Positions 10,857-62,270 of a stretch of DNA of 62,397 nt are shown here, piece after piece; positions within the stretch are counted from its first letter, which is position 1, and each line of letters starts with the position of its first letter. This stretch comes from Candidatus Moraniibacteriota bacterium. GTDB lineage: Bacteria > Patescibacteriota > Minisyncoccia > Moranbacterales > UBA1568. The position numbers and the translations under genes were made by a program. A model generated the notes under the pieces. The model was not told the DNA's origin. It searched no databases and saw only the letters and a program-made list of their open reading frames with translations. The stretch lies in the NCBI GenBank assembly GCA_028711705.1, contig JAQTRS010000005.1, positions 1-62,397 of the forward strand, in the 5' to 3' direction.

Positions 10857-13490
<2,634 letters not shown>

Positions 13491-13524
13491 GAATCATCCG
13501 AAAATAATACGAAATAATCTAGCG

Positions 13525-13673
13525 CGGCTCATCTCGAAATTTTAAAGAAATAACCTGTCTGAGACGACTTTCGTGTTCTGAAAATATCCATTGATTGTGT
13601 TAAGGGAGGGATATTTTTCAGGCAACACGAAAGGTCGGCGAGTCTTATTTCTTTAAAATTTCGAGATGAGCCG
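13525..13673. repeat. long-stem hairpin element, copy 1 (29-bp perfect outer stem plus a 91-nt conserved imperfect-palindrome core)
   Basis: 13525-13553 is the exact reverse complement of 13645-13673. The core 13554-13644 is roughly 84% identical to the reverse complement of 60541-60634. Confidence 0.85.
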
Positions 13674-13684
13674 TGCAAAACAAC

Positions 13685-14194
13685 ATGATTCTCATATCTC
13701 CCCTCTTTTTCGGACTTCTCACCGCGGCTGGCGCCTTGGTAGCCGAGCTCTTCATCTTCTCTTTTTTCATCCAGGACCCGGCCGTCTATTCAACAGCCCG
13801 AACTAATGCCAATTTCGTCTTCGCGACCGGCGGCATAACCTTTCTTTCCCTCTCCGCCCTCATCGAAGAATGCTCCAAATATGCGCTTCTTAGGCAAACA
13901 CTCCCGCCTGAAGCATCCTTTTTGCGCACGCTGCTCTTTCTGATACTGTTCAGTATCGGATTTTCCGGTTTGGAAATCACGCTCCTTATCTTGGGCAATC
14001 CCCTCATCAATACAGCGGCGACTCTTCATATCGGAGGCGTCTTCCTCATTCACCTTACGACCATATCGCTCTTCGGATACGCGCTCAGTCACCGATCGCT
14101 TCGGAAATTTTCCGCGCTCTTCATCCCCGCCGCATTCCTCGTTCATTTCCTTTATAACGTCGCTATTCTCTATAAGGATACCTTGCACGTTTGA
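13685..14194 (+). CDS. PrsW-like intramembrane protease family membrane protein
   Basis: It has multiple TM helices and carries EECSKY (EExxK) and HFLYN (HxxxN) motifs typical of PrsW/CPBP-type proteases. ATG 13685 is preferred over the GTG at 13673, which lies inside the hairpin arm. Confidence 0.5.
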   Translation: MILISPLFFGLLTAAGALVAELFIFSFFIQDPAVYSTARTNANFVFATGGITFLSLSALIEECSKYALLRQTLPPEASFLRTLLFLILFSIGFSGLEITLLILGNPLINTAATLHIGGVFLIHLTTISLFGYALSHRSLRKFSALFIPAAFLVHFLYNVAILYKDTLHV

Positions 14195-16470: not shown

Positions 16471-16508
16471 AAAAGCTCGTATCTTCTTGTGAAGATACGA
16501 GCTTTTTT
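16471..16508. terminator. bidirectional terminator (tRNA pair on + strand, histidine kinase on - strand)
   Basis: AAAAGCTCGTATCTTC pairs with GAAGATACGAGCTTTT in a 16-bp stem, flanked by A and T runs. Confidence 0.8.
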
Positions 16509-21521: not shown

Positions 21522-22599
21522 ACGCTTTCACATTTCTTAATGCCAAACCGATCGCCGTGGAATACTGCACTGACTTCTTCTTCTCGATGGGTGGAAGATG
21601 CTTCCCGAGCCGAAGATTGACCCATGGATTACCAAACTGAACCGGCATATTCAGGCGCTGCGACAGATACGGTAAAAGTCCTACCATATTCGAGCCTCCT
21701 CCGCACAATACCACGGTATCTATCGCTGAAGAATAACGCAGTCCGGTTAGATAAAAATCGATCGACCTTTGGATCTCGACTATCAAACTTTCTATTACCG
21801 GCGCCACCGCATTGAACAGAGGGTCTTTCTTGAGCGATGAGCCGATGCCATAGGTGATTTTGAGCGCCTCCGCTTCCTCGAAGGAAACCCGCATCGATTT
21901 GGAAATAGCATCCGTCACCATCTGAGAGGAGAGCGGGATGCTCGATGTGAAGCAGGGCGTGTTTCCTATGGAAACAAGAAAGCTGGTGCTCCTATCACCG
22001 ATATCGATGATGAGTGTCGTCTGGTCGTTCTCATCCTCCGACAAGAGGCTTCTGGCCTGCGCGATGGATTCGGTTTCCAAACCGACCACCTCGAGCCCCG
22101 CCGCCTCGAGTGTGCCAACAAACTGATCGACTACCGTTTTGGCGACCACAACCACCAACGCGCTCATCTTGTTGTTTTCCTTGCTCAGATTACGCGAGAG
22201 TATCTGGCTATCGTAGTACACCTGATCCAACGTGAGCGGGATATTGGCCTCGATCTCCCACTTGACCGCTTCCTTGGCCTCCGCCTCATCCATAATCGGA
22301 AGATTGATGATACGCAAAAAGGCTTTGACTTCAGGAAGCGAGCACACCACCTGTTTCGTGGGTATCTGCTTGGGGCCGGACTTCTCAATCAGGGTCTGAA
22401 TGGCTTCGATAACGGCACCCGATTTGATAATCTCGCCATCGGAGACGGCGCCCGACGGCAACGGAACAGATCCAAAGCTTGAGATGGTGTCGATATCGCC
22501 GCTTTCTTCAAGAAAGACCGATTTCAGGGAAAGGTCGCTCAAGTCCAATCCGAACGGACGCGGGTTGATACTGAAAATTTTTTGATTCAAAAACGACAT
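21511..22599 (-). CDS. pilM: PilM, actin-like type IV pilus assembly ATPase fold protein
   Basis: GLDLSDLSLKSV..., IIDIGDRSTSF and VLCGGGSNMVGL. Confidence 0.85.
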   Translation of the reverse strand: MSFLNQKIFSINPRPFGLDLSDLSLKSVFLEESGDIDTISSFGSVPLPSGAVSDGEIIKSGAVIEAIQTLIEKSGPKQIPTKQVVCSLPEVKAFLRIINLPIMDEAEAKEAVKWEIEANIPLTLDQVYYDSQILSRNLSKENNKMSALVVVVAKTVVDQFVGTLEAAGLEVVGLETESIAQARSLLSEDENDQTTLIIDIGDRSTSFLVSIGNTPCFTSSIPLSSQMVTDAISKSMRVSFEEAEALKITYGIGSSLKKDPLFNAVAPVIESLIVEIQRSIDFYLTGLRYSSAIDTVVLCGGGSNMVGLLPYLSQRLNMPVQFGNPWVNLRLGKHLPPIEKKKSVQYSTAIGLALRNVKAYGD

Positions 22600-30542: not shown

Positions 30543-31534
30543 TTATTGTATCATACCCGCAACCTTATCCCTTAACTTCGCTGTATTCCCCCACTTCAAA
30601 AGTCCCAGATACGATTGAACGACTCCTTCTTTATTGCCATTCTCCTCAAGATTGCGAAACATCCTTCGCTTGGTCGCCGTCCGTAAAACCCGATGATGTG
30701 GAAAATGCACCCAACCCAAAAAATCCACTCCCGAAGCCAGTGTTTCAATGGATACTTTATTCGGATGCATTTGCAGTTTCAATTCCCAGAGCAAGAACCC
30801 TTTCATCTGAAGTAAGATATCCTCAAGGTACGTTTTGTCTCGTGAAAATACAACAAAGTCATCCGCATAACGAATATACTGTCTCACTTTGAGCTCGTGT
30901 TCACGAATCGGTCGAATGCGTTCATATAGATATTGACCAGCAGTTGTGAAGTCAAATTTCCCAACGGCAGCCCGACGCCTGCGTGTGTTGAATGAAAGCT
31001 TCCGATAATTTCACTCAGCAACCACAAAATATCTTAATCGACAATGTGCTGTTTCAAAATTTTCACAAGAATTTCATGATCAATAGACGCGAAGAATTTC
31101 TTAATATCGCATTTGAGAACAAAGCAAGTTTTTGTATTGTTACAACTTACTTGGCGTGCAAACTCTTGAAACCGACTATTGGATTTATGTGTCCCTCTCT
31201 CATTTCGGCACGAATACGAATCGGCGATAAACTTCTTATCGAAAAACGGATACAAAACACGATATAAAGCGTGATGCACAATCCTGTCACACACCGAAGC
31301 CTTGTGAATGTCTCTGGGTTTGGGATCGGAGATTTTGAAAGCATGATACCCGCCGTGCCGATAGGTTTTGTTTTTCAATTCATCATGCAATGCAAGAATA
31401 TTGTCGGATAAACAATACTGAAACATCTGCACATCTGTCTTGTTGCGCTTGCCTTTCACAAAAGCTCGCCAAGCGACGAGCAAATTTTCCAAAGAAATGG
31501 TATCATCATAGATATGGACCAATTGTTTTCTCAT
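30543..31534 (-). pseudogene. DGR-type reverse transcriptase, interrupted by an in-frame TAA (31034-31036) and a -1 frameshift near 30900
   Basis: The three frame pieces read MRKQLVHIYDDTISLENLLVAWRAF...DPKPRDIHKASVCDRIVHHAL...FASIDHEILVKILKQHIVD*, then DILWLLSEIIGSFH...GLPLGNLTSQLLVNIYMNAFDRFV, then (shift) HELKVRQYIRYADDFVVFSRD. LGNLTSQ and YADD are DGR RT hallmarks. Confidence 0.85.
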
Positions 31535-31541
31535 ACTCCCA

Positions 31542-31937
31542 ATGTTACCCCCCCCCCCGACATTCTTGCAACCGAAACTCATTCCGGTCGTTTTGAAACT
31601 GAAAGACGCGTATGGCGTATGGCAAAATCATCTCCCTCATTTTCCCAAAGCGAATCGTTTCACGATCGGATCAAAAATCGACAACGTATTCCTTGCGACA
31701 ATCGAGTACTGTTTTCTGGCAAGTTACGCCAATGTTTCAGAGAAAATACCTCTTCTGGACAGAGCCATTTCACGAGTGGATCTGATTAAACTTTTGCTTC
31801 AATTGACTTGGGAAATGCATGCGCTCGATAACGCGAAGTATATGCAATTAAGCGAACGATTGGCAGAAATCGGACGGATGCTGGGCGGTTGGAAAAAAGG
31901 CCTCCAAGCAAAACAAAAACTCCCATCGGAAAGATAG
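31542..31937 (+). CDS. avd: Avd-like accessory variability determinant (four-helix-bundle family)
   Basis: 131-aa ORF containing HLPHFPKANRFTIGSKID. Its C-terminus RLAEIGRMLGGWKKGLQAK resembles the Bordetella phage Avd C-terminus. It lies on the strand opposite to the RT, TR and target. Confidence 0.75.
   Translation: MLPPPPTFLQPKLIPVVLKLKDAYGVWQNHLPHFPKANRFTIGSKIDNVFLATIEYCFLASYANVSEKIPLLDRAISRVDLIKLLLQLTWEMHALDNAKYMQLSERLAEIGRMLGGWKKGLQAKQKLPSER
31548..31558. repeat. C11 (G11) homopolymer tract in codons 3-6 of avd
   Basis: The sequence ATG TTA CCC CCC CCC CCG shows 11 consecutive C directly. Confidence 0.95.
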
Positions 31938-31954
31938 GAGAAAAAACACGGTTT

Positions 31955-32064
31955 CACGAGAACATTCGGTTATCCGCATTCCACCGGTCATTCTCGCCAA
32001 ACTTCCAGTCATTGACGTTCCACTTACCGTTGTCGGCATTCCAGTTTACGTTGACAACCGCGAC
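31955..32064 (-). repeat. DGR template repeat (TR)
   Basis: It is 110 nt colinear with 32382-32491. At all 16 mismatches this copy carries A on the minus strand. In the VR frame it reads as an Asn-rich peptide, VAVVNVNWNADNGKWNVNDWKFGENDRWNADNRMFS. Confidence 0.9.
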
Positions 32065-32368
32065 TCTCGTATGAGGTATCATCCATGCCACCACCCGTCG
32101 AATACTCTTCGGGTTGAATCGTATGCGGGATATCGAAGTCCTCCAACACCTCATACCAACGGTGTATTTTTTGTTTGAAAGAATTGGAAACCACTCTCGG
32201 CAGAGCCTTAACCCTCCCAATTCCCGATTTTCCATTCTTGAAATTCTTGTTCTCAGCCGTAACCGAAAACTTTTCAGAATTCCATAGTGAGTATATCAAA
32301 AAAAGCGGGCCCCTCATACCAAAGGTACAAAGAGCCCAAGAGCCTAAGTAAAAACAAGATTCCAAGTG

Positions 32369-32989
32369 TCACACCGGTTGGCACGAGAACACTCGGTAAG
32401 CCGCATCCCACCGGCCAAGCTCGCCAAACTTCCAGTCATTGACGAACCACCGACCGCTGTCGGCATTCCAGTAGACGCGGACAACCGCGACATACCCCAG
32501 TATTTTCAGATGAAATATATTTGCACGGTAATCGGTGTTGAGAAGTGAACCATCTTTACCGCCCCACTGTTTCAGCAGAAGCCATAGAATGAGAGTGAGA
32601 CCTTCGATAAGCCCGAACTCGTATCCTTTCGGCAATTCTCGATCGATTTCGCTGTCGGACATCCTTTCTTTGAGATCAAAATAGTATGCCGTTATTGGTT
32701 CAATCGTCTCGACAATTCCCTGAACGTATTTGAGAATATTTGCTCTGAAAGTTTCCCAAACATACAAACCTTCCTTTGTTTGAAAAAACTCAAGAAAGTT
32801 GAGGTTCGTTTGTGGATCGGTTGTTACTGAATTCACATATCTCAGTTTATCCGACTGCCATTTTAAGGCAGGTTCATTTTTTTCGCCAGCTTCTCTGCTG
32901 GCGTTTATAGCATTCTGCAAAATTTCCGAAGAAATTTTGCCACAAATGCACAGCCAGGTGAAATACGCCCATTGTTTTATTTTATTCAT
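32369..32989 (-). CDS. DGR target protein (hypothetical, VR in the last ~40 codons)
   Basis: The start is set at ATG 32989 (MNKIKQW...) with a GGAGAG Shine-Dalgarno sequence 6 nt upstream. An upstream ATG at 33037 is also open. I see no obvious signal peptide. Confidence 0.75.
   Translation of the reverse strand: MNKIKQWAYFTWLCICGKISSEILQNAINASREAGEKNEPALKWQSDKLRYVNSVTTDPQTNLNFLEFFQTKEGLYVWETFRANILKYVQGIVETIEPITAYYFDLKERMSDSEIDRELPKGYEFGLIEGLTLILWLLLKQWGGKDGSLLNTDYRANIFHLKILGYVAVVRVYWNADSGRWFVNDWKFGELGRWDAAYRVFSCQPV
32382..32491 (-). repeat. DGR variable repeat (VR) at the 3' end of the target gene
   Basis: It encodes VAVVRVYWNADSGRWFVNDWKFGELGRWDAAYRVFS. The 16 substitutions relative to TR all fall at TR adenines. 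Confidence 0.9.
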
Positions 32990-33098
32990 AATGACTCTCC
33001 TCTGCGTTTGAGTCGTTGGGAAAATGGCGGTTGCCATGATTTTTAAGGATATAAAATCCTTTATTAGTCTTATTTGATTGTTAAGAAACTAACAGTGC

Positions 33099-33127
33099 AT
33101 TGTACACCTCTTTGTGGGATTTGTCAA
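33099..33127 (-). promoter_or_regulatory. candidate promoter of the DGR target gene
   Basis: The minus strand reads TTGACA, a 17-nt spacer, then TACAAT. Confidence 0.55.
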
Positions 33128-35909: not shown

Positions 35910-36008
35910 ATGATGTATAAGAATTTGTTTCCACATATTTTTTCATGACCGTTGGAGTACTCGAGAAGGTCTTGAAAAAATATGTGGAAACAAATTCCTT
36001 CCGAGTAA

Positions 36009-59238: not shown

Positions 59239-59293
59239 TTCGCTAGACTATTCCCGCTTATAATGATTTTGCGAAAGTGCATCATTGTAAGCG

Positions 59294-59687
59294 GGGGTTG
59301 TTTAGACTCGACAGGGTGTACTTTTACAATACGCAAGCCGATTATGAAAGTATTATCGTTAATCATCCTTTCACGATGACAATTGCAAACGTCTTCACAA
59401 AAGCCAAGCAGGCATTAGCGCAAGCTTTTGCTCCTACTTACGCTTTCAACCTGGCTTAAATTCCAGGTTCATCAAGCTCTTGACTCCCGATACGGAGATC
59501 TTGGTGTCATACATCGGGAAGGATCGATCCTTGTAGCCGCTTTTCGGATCGAAGCCCTTGCACAAGACGGCTAGACTCGAAAGACTTGGTTTGTTTTGTA
59601 CTTTCGAGCCTTACATAAAGCAAACTAAGCTTGTAGAGTATTATAGGAGTACATTACTGGACATGGGTGCAATTCCCATCAGCTCCA
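59294..59687 (+). ncRNA. ssrA: tmRNA (one-piece)
   Basis: The 5' end GGGGTTGTTTAGACTCGACAGGG and the 3' end GGACATGGGTGCAATTCCCATCAGCTCCA form a tRNA-Ala-like acceptor with G3:U. The tag ORF at 59385-59459 begins with GCA and reads ANVFTKAKQALAQAFAPTYAFNLA*. Confidence 0.9.
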
Positions 59688-59754
59688 CATCATTTTTAAG
59701 TCCAATCATATTAGAAGGAGAAAATTCCGCCGAGCGCGGCCAAAAGTTGAGGTT

Positions 59755-60303: not shown

Positions 60304-60498
60304 ATGAAGCAGAAAACTAAGAAGTCACTCAGCAAGAAGGTCAAAGTGACTGGATCAGGCAAAATTACCCGCCGCTCCACCAAACAGAACCACTACAATA
60401 GCCGCGCCACCGGCAATGCTAACCGAGGCAAGAAGCGAGATCGAGGTTTCTTCAAGGCTGATGAGGCGAATATCGTGAAAGCGCTCCCTAACGCGTAA
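60304..60498 (+). CDS. rpmI: 50S ribosomal protein L35
   Basis: MKQKTKKSLSKKVKVTGSGKITRR... Confidence 0.93.
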   Translation: MKQKTKKSLSKKVKVTGSGKITRRSTKQNHYNSRATGNANRGKKRDRGFFKADEANIVKALPNA

Positions 60499-60510
60499 AT
60501 CCTGCCTAGC

Positions 60511-60667
60511 AAAGTTTGATAGTAATGATTTTTTCAAAAACAAGACTCACCGACGTTCTCTGTTACCTGACAATATCCCTCACTCGACACAATCAATGGA
60601 TATTCTCAGAACAGAGAAAGTCGTCTCAGACATATTGTTTTCTCAAAAATCATTACTATCAAACTTT
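60511..60667. repeat. long-stem hairpin element, copy 2 (opposite orientation to copy 1)
   Basis: 60511-60533 is the exact reverse complement of 60645-60667, and 7 further bp follow a 3x3 internal loop. The core is homologous to 13554-13644 in reverse complement. Confidence 0.85.
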
Positions 60668-60702
60668 TCCCAATAGATTATATAATTTTAAGATGAATTG
60701 AT

Positions 60703-61047
60703 ATGACTCGAGTCAAACGCGGTGTCGCCGCATCGAAGAGAAGGAAAAACGTATTAGCCCTGACCAAGGGATTCATGTGGCGCCGCAAGAGCCACTTTGC
60801 AGCCGCCAAGGAGGCTATGATCAAAGCCGGTAAGTATGCCCACCGTGACCGCCGCGCCAAAAAGCGGACATTCCGCGCCTTGTGGATCACCCGCCTCAAC
60901 AACGCGCTGCGCTTGATCGGCATGAAGTACAGCACCTTTATCGCCCTGGAGAAAACCAAAAACATCGAAATCGACCGCAAGGTGCTTTCCCAGTTGGCCA
61001 TGGAAAATCCGGAGACTTTCAAACTTCTCGCCGAAAAAGTGAAATAA
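60703..61047 (+). CDS. rplT: 50S ribosomal protein L20
   Basis: MTRVKRGVAASKRRKNVLALTKGF...AHRDRRAKKRTFRALWITRLN. Confidence 0.95.
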   Translation: MTRVKRGVAASKRRKNVLALTKGFMWRRKSHFAAAKEAMIKAGKYAHRDRRAKKRTFRALWITRLNNALRLIGMKYSTFIALEKTKNIEIDRKVLSQLAMENPETFKLLAEKVK

Positions 61048-61057
61048 ATTGCTCTTC

Positions 61058-61090
61058 ATAAAACCCCCTGAACGTTCAGGGGGTTTTATA
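61058..61090 (+). terminator. rho-independent terminator after rplT
   Basis: AAAACCCCCTGAAC/GTTCAGGGGGTTTT is a perfect palindrome. Confidence 0.85.
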
Positions 61091-62154: not shown

Positions 62155-62200
62155 GTGAAGCTATGAATTTTCCTATCTTTACGGTTTGCTGATCATATAT

Positions 62201-62227
62201 AAAAACCCCGGATAATCCGGGGTTTTT
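62201..62227. terminator. bidirectional terminator
   Basis: AAAAACCCCGGA-TAA-TCCGGGGTTTTT. Confidence 0.85.
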
Positions 62228-62270
62228 ATGCAACTAAATCAAGCATCGTGATTGTAACTGATATCCTCTC

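Follow-up and report, generated by a model that had tools for sequence, protein, structure and literature searches.

An uncatalogued family of strand-specific intergenic hairpins in Moranbacteria-like bacteria, present or absent at orthologous sites

The bcr1 repeats of the Bacillus cereus group are intergenic sequences of ~155 bp with a non-conserved distribution between related strains. They are transcribed, compensatory changes keep their structure at the RNA level, and they are regarded as a particular type of mobile sequence (PMC3184786). These repeats have 5-bp direct repeats at their flanks and a cruciform-like fold containing two stem-loops (PMC3184786). The Correia elements of Neisseria (CREE/NEMIS), 100–155 bp long, consist of inverted repeats and a conserved core and are mobilised between strains; the hairpin in their transcripts binds RNase III (PMC2649163). 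For these elements, conserved 26-bp inverted-repeat ends, TA duplication, and the creation of promoters and IHF sites have also been described (PMC2649163). Here, we describe a hairpin element found in a DNA stretch of 62,397 nt from a Candidatus Moraniibacteriota bacterium (GenBank assembly GCA_028711705.1, contig JAQTRS010000005.1, positions 1–62,397), herein referred to as the window. This element is present at the 3' flank of the valS gene (copy 1) and in the rpmI–rplT spacer (copy 2). It is more than a chance hairpin and is part of an uncatalogued element family in bacteria of the Candidate Phyla Radiation (CPR, Patescibacteria).

In its behaviour, the family is closest to bcr1 and also close to the Correia elements. 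It shares with bcr1 the similar size, intergenic location, patchy distribution, and compensatory changes, whereas it forms a single rod without consistent direct repeats, has a conserved centre and variable self-complementary ends, has no sequence similarity to bcr1, and occurs in another host phylum. As in the Correia elements, inverted repeats surround a conserved core and copies are scattered beside genes. In contrast to these elements, the termini are copy-specific, no duplication or promoter was found, and the fold is strongly strand-asymmetric. The REP/BIME, ERIC, SMAG, and RUP repeats are also intergenic palindromes found in both orientations and often in operons, with proposed roles in mRNA stability or termination (PMC3184786, PMC3733652, PMC2267715), and the element resembles them in these respects. 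REPs are G+C-rich sequences of 20–40 nt with a GTAG/CGTC tag at one end, high-copy and often clustered (PMC3733652). The element described here, on the contrary, has a length of ~157 nt, is A+T-rich (34–40% G+C versus 49.5% in the window), low-copy, and solitary, has conserved loops, and lacks the GTAG/CGTC tag at its ends.

The attC sites and the hairpins of IS200/IS605 are recognised by the structure of one strand and have conserved unpaired or extrahelical bases, a variable stem, and no target duplication, and the element shares the latter features and may be recognised in the same way. In attC the conserved sequence is located at the hairpin foot and the centre is variable, whereas here the centre is conserved, the foot is variable, and housekeeping genes lie on either side. 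Among the flanking genes scanned, neither an integrase nor a cassette array nor TnpA was found, and no replication-strand bias was found. Finally, 6S RNA is a 150–200-nt rod composed of a closing stem, internal loop, internal stem, and terminal loop. The element is a rod of similar size and parts, but it has no Rfam match, has a small loop, is multi-copy, and is sporadic at orthologous sites.

The hairpin family and its conserved one-strand fold

In total, at least 25 copies of the hairpin, forming approximately three subfamilies, were recovered from metagenomes and one related metagenome-assembled genome (MAG). Among genome representatives, a pattern of the internal-loop halves gave two copies in MAG GCA_964624415.1 (L003 and L004), the L20 protein of which is 96% identical to that of the window. 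A pattern of the apical loop gave 17 further copies in metagenome contigs, and one copy (L043), with a loop deviating from the search pattern, was found through synteny alone. Samples in which the family is present include IMG 3300014208 and 3300037810 as well as SRR12487045. Additionally, a divergent member (L025, 9007–9156, plus strand) surfaced as a weak match to the covariance model, with 29.5 bits. This member has the same outer stem, internal loop (with CCGAG as the right side), and two inner helices, together with a 44-nt branched apical region. Thus, the family is wider than the apical-loop pattern could reach. Chance matches of the pattern scans, G+C-rich or unrelated, were discarded (L001, L002, L005, L006, L013, L017, L020–L022, L028, and L031–L033).

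Subfamily A includes the window-like copies, subfamily B is AT-richer, and at least one further variant exists. Identity is ~60–65% between the subfamilies and reaches 95% within one assembly. By its L20 homologues, the host of the window adjoins Candidatus Moranbacteria in the CPR, and members of the family occur in Moranbacteria-like CPR bacteria as well as in hosts of the AT-richer subfamilies. Two copies in the 62-kb window correspond to ~1 copy per 30 kb, and three copies are located on one 69-kb contig; only one copy was found in 110 kb of DNA of the relatives. Some contigs end inside the element with identical sequence (L015 at both ends, L012 at the start, and L025 at the end), and one 5.8-kb metagenome contig is bounded by two inverted copies. 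Thus, this palindromic repeat breaks metagenome assemblies.

A search of the whole window against Rfam 15 at gathering thresholds gave only rRNA, tmRNA, and tRNAs. For the region 13450–13750 at E ≤ 10, only noise was found, the best match being a plant miRNA precursor with 33.8 bits against a threshold of 211. No sequence match to the element was found in IMG/VR or in phage and plasmid collections.

The core structure was derived by RNAalifold and covariance-model alignment of 20 copies and includes 28 pairs, 15 of which are altered on both sides. Pairing is retained in 97.1% of the core cells, as compared to 83% in column shuffles (none of 500 reached the observed value), and only 46–61% of the cells pair when partners are slid by 1–3 columns. 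The covariation score is 0.403 versus 0.148, and none of 500 shuffles attained the former. The proximal outer stem covaries as well; at one pair, for example, seven copies have C-G and five have U-A. The compensatory changes thus go beyond both the shuffled and the slid controls, as is generally expected of structured RNAs.

The hairpin consists of a closing stem of ~30 bp, a 12/8-nt internal loop, an internal stem of ~25 bp, and a 19-nt loop, 150–165 nt altogether. Sequence conservation is seen in its unpaired parts, namely the apical loop, AUUGAUUGUGUYRAGKGAG, and an asymmetric internal loop, with the consensus YUGNYYGAG(N)AM opposite GGYGAG. These loop sequences are kept across subfamilies that are ~60% identical overall, and a UUG-N3-4-GAG pattern recurs in both the apical loop and the internal loop's 5' side. 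Subfamily A has additional GAG/GAG 3×3 loops, in which, judging by their sequence, tandem G·A pairs with G·U on either side could form. The internal loop was also compared by hand with the consensus registers of the kink-turn, hammerhead, hairpin ribozyme, and bulge-helix-bulge, none of which fits all subfamilies. No stretch of at least 10 nt complementary to the loops was found in the window except in the element copies themselves.

The fold is specific for one strand. Each copy scores 108–147 bits with the covariance model on one strand and 21–34 bits on the other. Folding favours the element strand over its complement in 19 of 20 copies, by 5–30 and usually 10–30 kcal/mol, while the fold energies of the reverse complement are still −32 to −79 kcal/mol. 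This strand-specific fold counts against a purely double-stranded-DNA palindrome. The transition-type mismatches of the outer stem, read on the element strand, comprise 32 G·U and 2 A·C (p = 7e-8). Copies lying antisense to the genes beside them have a ratio of 12:0, and a ratio of 16:2 is found when the local C-rich strand is the element strand; therefore, neither the direction of the host mRNA nor compositional skew explains the asymmetry. Mutational skew was likewise rejected as a source of the G·U excess, which persists (16:2) on the C-rich element strand. Since the mismatches are located in copy-specific sequence and are not inherited between copies, they point to selection on each resident copy for one-strand pairing.

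In the window, positions 13556–13648 and the reverse complement of 60541–60634 are identical in 80 of 97 positions (82%), close to the ~84% estimated in an earlier note, made from the letters of this DNA alone. That note had also described the perfect 29-bp stem 13525–13553/13645–13673, which is read straight from the sequence; a compensated inner helix, CTTTCGTGTT/AACACGAAAG in copy 1 versus TTCTCTGTT/AACAGAGAA in copy 2, which was found again; and conserved loops, the motifs of which are present at only these two places in the window by pattern scan, the matches expected there by chance being 0.16 for TGTCTGAGACGACTTTC and 0.31 for ATATCCATTGATTGTGT. Its observation that the outer arms diverge but remain self-complementary applies across the copies of the family, and its suggestion that it is the fold and not the sequence that is preserved agrees with the further copies, found in the MAG, in metagenome contigs, and by synteny, and with the strong covariation in the core helices and the proximal outer stem. 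No known RNA family had been recognised in the element, and the Rfam searches at gathering and permissive thresholds gave the same result.

The arms of copy 1 can be extended to 13522–13553/13645–13676, i.e., 32 nt that are 97% complementary and separated by 91 nt, and its RNA fold has −78.8 kcal/mol (z = −12.4; none of 200 shuffles equals it). The distal ~15 nt of its left arm (GCGGCTCATCTCGAA) were found in no other copy. For copy 2, the fold of 60510–60675 on the minus strand has −71.6 kcal/mol (z = −11.3). The coordinates of both copies are collected in Table 1. A small protein gene on the opposite strand (e.g., open reading frame (ORF) 60516–60701) was considered and rejected, as one-base indels between the copies break the frame and the substitutions are paired across the helices.

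Table 1. Parts of the two hairpin copies found in the window
Feature	Positions	Strand	Details
Copy 1, whole hairpin (~150–155 nt)	13522..13676	+	Fold; covariance model, 122.9 bits
Copy 1, left arm, outer (basal) stem	13525..13553	+	Perfect pairing with 13645–13673
Copy 1, internal loop, 5' side	13554..13565	+	CCUGUCUGAGAC; family consensus YUGNYYGAG
Copy 1, covarying inner helices, 5' strands	13566..13589	+	GAC, CUUUCGUGUU, CUGAAAAUAUCC
Copy 1, conserved apical loop	13590..13608	+	AUUGAUUGUGUUAAGGGAG
Copy 1, inner helices, 3' strands	13609..13636	+	GGAUAUUUUUCAGG, AACACGAAAG, GUC
Copy 1, internal loop, 3' side	13637..13644	+	GGCGAGUC; family consensus GGYGAG
Copy 1, right arm, outer stem	13645..13673	+	
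Copy 2, whole hairpin (157 nt)	60511..60667	-	Fold; covariance model, 135.5 bits
Copy 2, internal loop, 5' side	60623..60632	-	UGUCUGAGAC
Copy 2, apical loop	60579..60597	-	AUUGAUUGUGUCGAGUGAG
Copy 2, internal loop, 3' side	60544..60551	-	GGUGAGUC

Insertion sites and the variable basal stem

All copies are intergenic and located 12–60 nt from both neighbouring genes. These neighbours are unrelated housekeeping genes: valS, clpB-like, comF-like, tmk, purM, recJ, nusA, rpmI/rplT, and genes for glycosyltransferases and a copper ATPase. Where the flanking genes are co-directional, the element is sense to them in 7 copies and antisense in 13; two copies lie between divergent genes. The orientation is thus independent of the flanking genes, which counts against a terminator or stabiliser of valS. 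Scans for intrinsic terminators were negative at both window copies, and no U-tract follows the stem. All 4-kb bins of the window (1–62397) have a negative GC skew, from −0.06 to −0.22. Therefore, the window represents one replichore with marked strand bias, and its two copies are opposite within this replichore. For subfamily A, the orientation relative to the local GC skew is 6:6. The approximately ten flanking genes scanned against Pfam included no transposase or recombinase, most of the ~335 kb of element-bearing or related DNA being outside this protein scan.

Copy 1 begins 31 nt past the valS stop (13490), ends ~8–12 nt before the ATG at 13685 of a gene for a 169-aa protein, and is co-directional with both genes. 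An overlap of its right arm with the start of this next gene had been proposed, but the homologues are 169 aa long and so place the start at ATG 13685, beyond the hairpin. Copy 2 is located between rpmI (60304–60498, plus strand) and rplT (60703–61047, plus strand) and is antisense to both.

Orthologous sites differ in the presence of the element. The rpmI–rplT spacer is filled and 204 nt long in the window, and it is empty in L034 (26 nt; L20 96% identical), L040/L041 (73 nt; 93%), L042 (51 nt; 92%), L037 (83 nt; 90%), and L038 (66 nt; 82%). These relatives lack the whole hairpin, including the 23-bp basal arms, while upstream of rplT the window and L040 have nearly the same flank (tccc[a/t]atagattatataattttaagatgaattgatATG). 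Comparison of the filled and empty sites gives at most TAG...TAG as a direct repeat. The valS 3' flank is filled in the window (194 nt) and in L043 (191 nt; 169-aa protein 67% identical) and is empty in L046 (5 nt; 64%), L044/L045 (42 nt; 62%), and L047 (16 nt; 60%). A search with the C-terminal part of ValS gave only distant partial proteins. Dispersed intergenic copies that are present or absent between relatives are thus found here, as in miniature inverted-repeat transposable elements (MITEs) and interspersed repeats in general. Since new copies arise in short spacers in either orientation and are then lost, the behaviour of the family is that of a non-autonomous mobile element.

The rpmI–rplT spacer is a hot spot for hairpins. 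In L038 (9935–10000) it holds a different hairpin of ~20 bp made of GTCGTCA/GACGAC repeats, and small unrelated hairpins were found in L040/L041 and L037. At 60677–60686 in the window, 17 nt upstream of the ATG of rplT, lies a perfect palindrome, ATTATATAAT, which is kept at the same place in L034, L040, and L041, all without the element. It reads TATAAT on both strands and could be a −10 box for rplT and, in the window, also for antisense transcription into copy 2.

The outer 10–20 bp of the hairpin are different in every copy but self-complementary. In subfamily A, the outermost 15–20 bp differ in each copy, whereas the copies of subfamily B share ~20-nt terminal repeats (GAATAAATTTTTTAAAAA/TTTTTCAAAAAATTTCATTC), with pairing extended past them into unique sequence. 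Subfamily A thus has a shorter conserved part and longer unique arms and subfamily B the reverse, while the total length is 146–168 nt in all 19 full copies across the subfamilies. No consistent direct repeat, which target-site duplication would leave, was found at the feet of these 19 copies, and isolated 4–5-nt matches occur at chance frequency. The two copies at the orthologous valS site, in the window and L043, have in common GCGG as the outermost part and GAAA(A)UUUU on the inner side, between which eight pairs are changed on both strands. In one assembly, two contig-breaking copies have cores identical over at least 100 nt and different, self-complementary basal arms; the contig halves were paired here by the complementarity of these arms, so the assignment is a probable one.

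Three candidate explanations may be given for the identical cores and variable stems: insertion into the loops of pre-existing hairpins, gene conversion homogenising the cores, and building of the stem at insertion. For insertion into a host palindrome speak the small rpmI–rplT hairpins of the relatives and other long intergenic hairpins in the window (e.g., 35921–35997); against it, the valS spacers of the relatives are only 5–42 nt long and have no hairpin. Copying of the basal arms from the local flank by template switching was not adopted, the arms having no significant similarity to the empty-site spacers, although these spacers are too diverged for a firm negative. A search for a basal arm elsewhere in the genome gave one 13-nt match in a pilM-like gene (21775–21791), which was judged to be due to chance.

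Other inverted repeats and elements of the window

At 35921–35997, flanked by two genes of the minus strand, there is another long intergenic hairpin of unrelated sequence, with a stem of 30 bp (97% complementary) and a loop of 17 nt, GTTGGAGTACTCGAGAA. It scores only 22 bits with the family model (E = 0.16) and may be a core-less relative of the family or an independent hairpin. Perfect palindromes of 15–19 bp with A-run/T-run flanks were found at 61058–61089, 16471–16506, and 62199–62229 (e.g., ATAAAACCCCCTGAACGTTCAGGGGGTTTTAT just after rplT) and look like bidirectional terminators. A 25-nt inverted repeat (80% complementary) at 59243–59305 overlaps the 5' end of the tmRNA gene (59294–59690). 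The region 30570–33127 contains a bAvd-like ORF (31542–31937, plus strand) and a reverse-transcriptase fragment ORF (31034–31582, minus strand) and looks like a diversity-generating retroelement. Its flanks have 82% DNA identity to L023 (2784–4232), with a 1.1-kb indel at 30868–31972. Genes for reverse transcriptase and bAvd are also found in L038, beside argS.

The probable nature of the element

With a slightly better than even chance, we consider the element to be a non-autonomous, mobile, strand-specific structured RNA, probably protein-binding. Its working form would be a single-stranded transcript of the strand reading UGUCUGAGAC...CCAUUGAUUGUGU...GGYGAG, folded into a rod of 60–75 base pairs. 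The 19-nt apical loop, the internal loop, and the GAG/GAG tandem-mismatch loops may form a docking surface for a trans-acting protein, and the long duplex may be a substrate of an RNase III-type enzyme. The basal stem would differ from copy to copy because selection holds the pairing and length of the rod and leaves most of the stem sequence free. The earlier note had named as candidates a foldback or MITE-like mobile element, a hairpin recognised by a protein, and a structured RNA. A mobile structured element is retained from this list, while non-conserved ends and the lack of target duplication count against a classical MITE.

Several points weigh against this interpretation. The strongest concerns the RNA form: scans gave no conserved promoter or terminator, and a −10-like hexamer is found upstream of 16 of 20 copies versus 10 of 20 in the control orientation, a non-significant difference; moreover, 13 of 20 copies would need their own promoter, being antisense to co-directional neighbours. 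The G·U pattern does not prove RNA, since hairpins of single-stranded DNA are likewise stabilised by G·T and tandem G·A pairs. Part of the apical loop's invariance was imposed by the apical-loop search pattern, although in L003, L004, and L043, found independently of this pattern, the loop differs by no more than one base. In addition, identical cores with differing basal stems are not accounted for by simple copy-and-paste of the whole hairpin.

It is also conceivable, though unlikely, that the functional strand is DNA. In that case the element would be a selfish hairpin whose movement depends on an enzyme that recognises the structure of single-stranded DNA and has its gene elsewhere in the genome; candidates are HUH/Y1 transposases (IS200/IS605 or REP-RAYT kind) and integron-integrase-like recombinases. 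The strand-specific fold, the preference of G·T over A·C, the lack of target duplication, the gain and loss between relatives, and the exclusively intergenic location are in agreement with such an origin, and conserved bulges and loops are also found in attC or IS608 hairpins. However, IS200/IS605-type elements have a lagging-strand bias, whereas the window copies are opposite within a single replichore and subfamily A shows no preference relative to the local skew. The conserved sequence is central rather than at the ends, where cleavage sites would lie, the scanned flanking genes include no transposase or recombinase, and a purifying G·U pattern in basal stems unique to each copy is not what selection for transposition would preserve. 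A classical double-stranded cut-and-paste MITE, with the hairpin as a functionless by-product of terminal inverted repeats, would fit the size, AT-richness, intergenic scatter, both orientations, and presence/absence polymorphism, as well as the shared terminal repeats of subfamily B. We regard it as very unlikely: the outermost bases of subfamily A vary in each copy, flanking direct repeats are not consistent, the internal helices covary rather than merely decay, the total length is constant, G·U exceeds A·C 16:1 on one strand, the strand scores are very unequal, and neither a related insertion sequence at any locus, in the scan of roughly ten flanking genes, nor a plasmid or phage match was found. 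The purifying G·U pattern, together with the absence of conserved ends, duplications, and replication-strand bias, makes the strongest case against both of these DNA-based explanations.

A role in cis within the host transcript, whether in termination, in RNase III processing, or in stabilising the 3' ends of valS and other upstream genes, is suggested by the location of copies 12–60 nt from gene ends in likely operons. A strong hairpin would also enter the mRNA in either orientation, as the reverse complement folds too, and the Correia elements are such RNase III targets (PMC2649163). Such a role has little probability, given the prevalence of antisense copies, the G·U bias that follows the element strand rather than the mRNA strand, the negative terminator scans, and the close relatives in which the same sites work without the element; moreover, a plain duplex signal would leave the loop conservation on one strand unexplained. 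A divergent housekeeping rod-shaped RNA, such as 6S RNA, fits the overall geometry and size (150–165 nt), but is highly improbable: there is no match to 6S or any other Rfam family even at E ≤ 10, the loop is far smaller than the 6S bubble, there are several copies per genome (including three on one 69-kb contig), these are gained and lost at orthologous sites among close relatives, and their similarity within genomes is concerted at the subfamily level, as is typical of repeats. There is, finally, a small chance that only the centre is inherited and the basal stem is remade at each insertion. The 10–20-bp basal stem would then be rebuilt from new sequence to a fixed total of ~157 nt, possibly by snap-back or template-switch synthesis or by a ruler-type enzyme docked on the conserved loops. 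In a related version, the copy-specific basal duplex would be a payload cut out like a pre-miRNA stem, giving locus-specific small RNAs. Both versions stay under consideration because of the identical-core copies with unrelated stems, the absence of the stems from empty sites, and the constant length.

The element does not have the conserved termini and target duplication that define a MITE, nor the defining features of REP, attC, and an intrinsic terminator, and it matches no Rfam family; it was therefore filed as a structured interspersed repeat outside any named family. Its covariance model can serve as an annotation handle for a repeat that breaks assemblies, and its copies as presence/absence markers between close Moranbacteria strains. 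The genomes of CPR bacteria are tiny, their spacers are very short, and descriptions of non-coding elements in them are few; for this reason, the tolerance of a ~157-nt element in operons such as infC-rpmI-rplT is of note. Mobile elements usually have conserved ends and a free centre; the present element inverts this logic, with its conserved centre, free but complementary ends, and fixed length, which makes the insertion mechanism a concrete and testable question. The structured RNA favoured above would imply an undescribed RNA-protein system, and otherwise the family may represent an undescribed way for a hairpin to spread.

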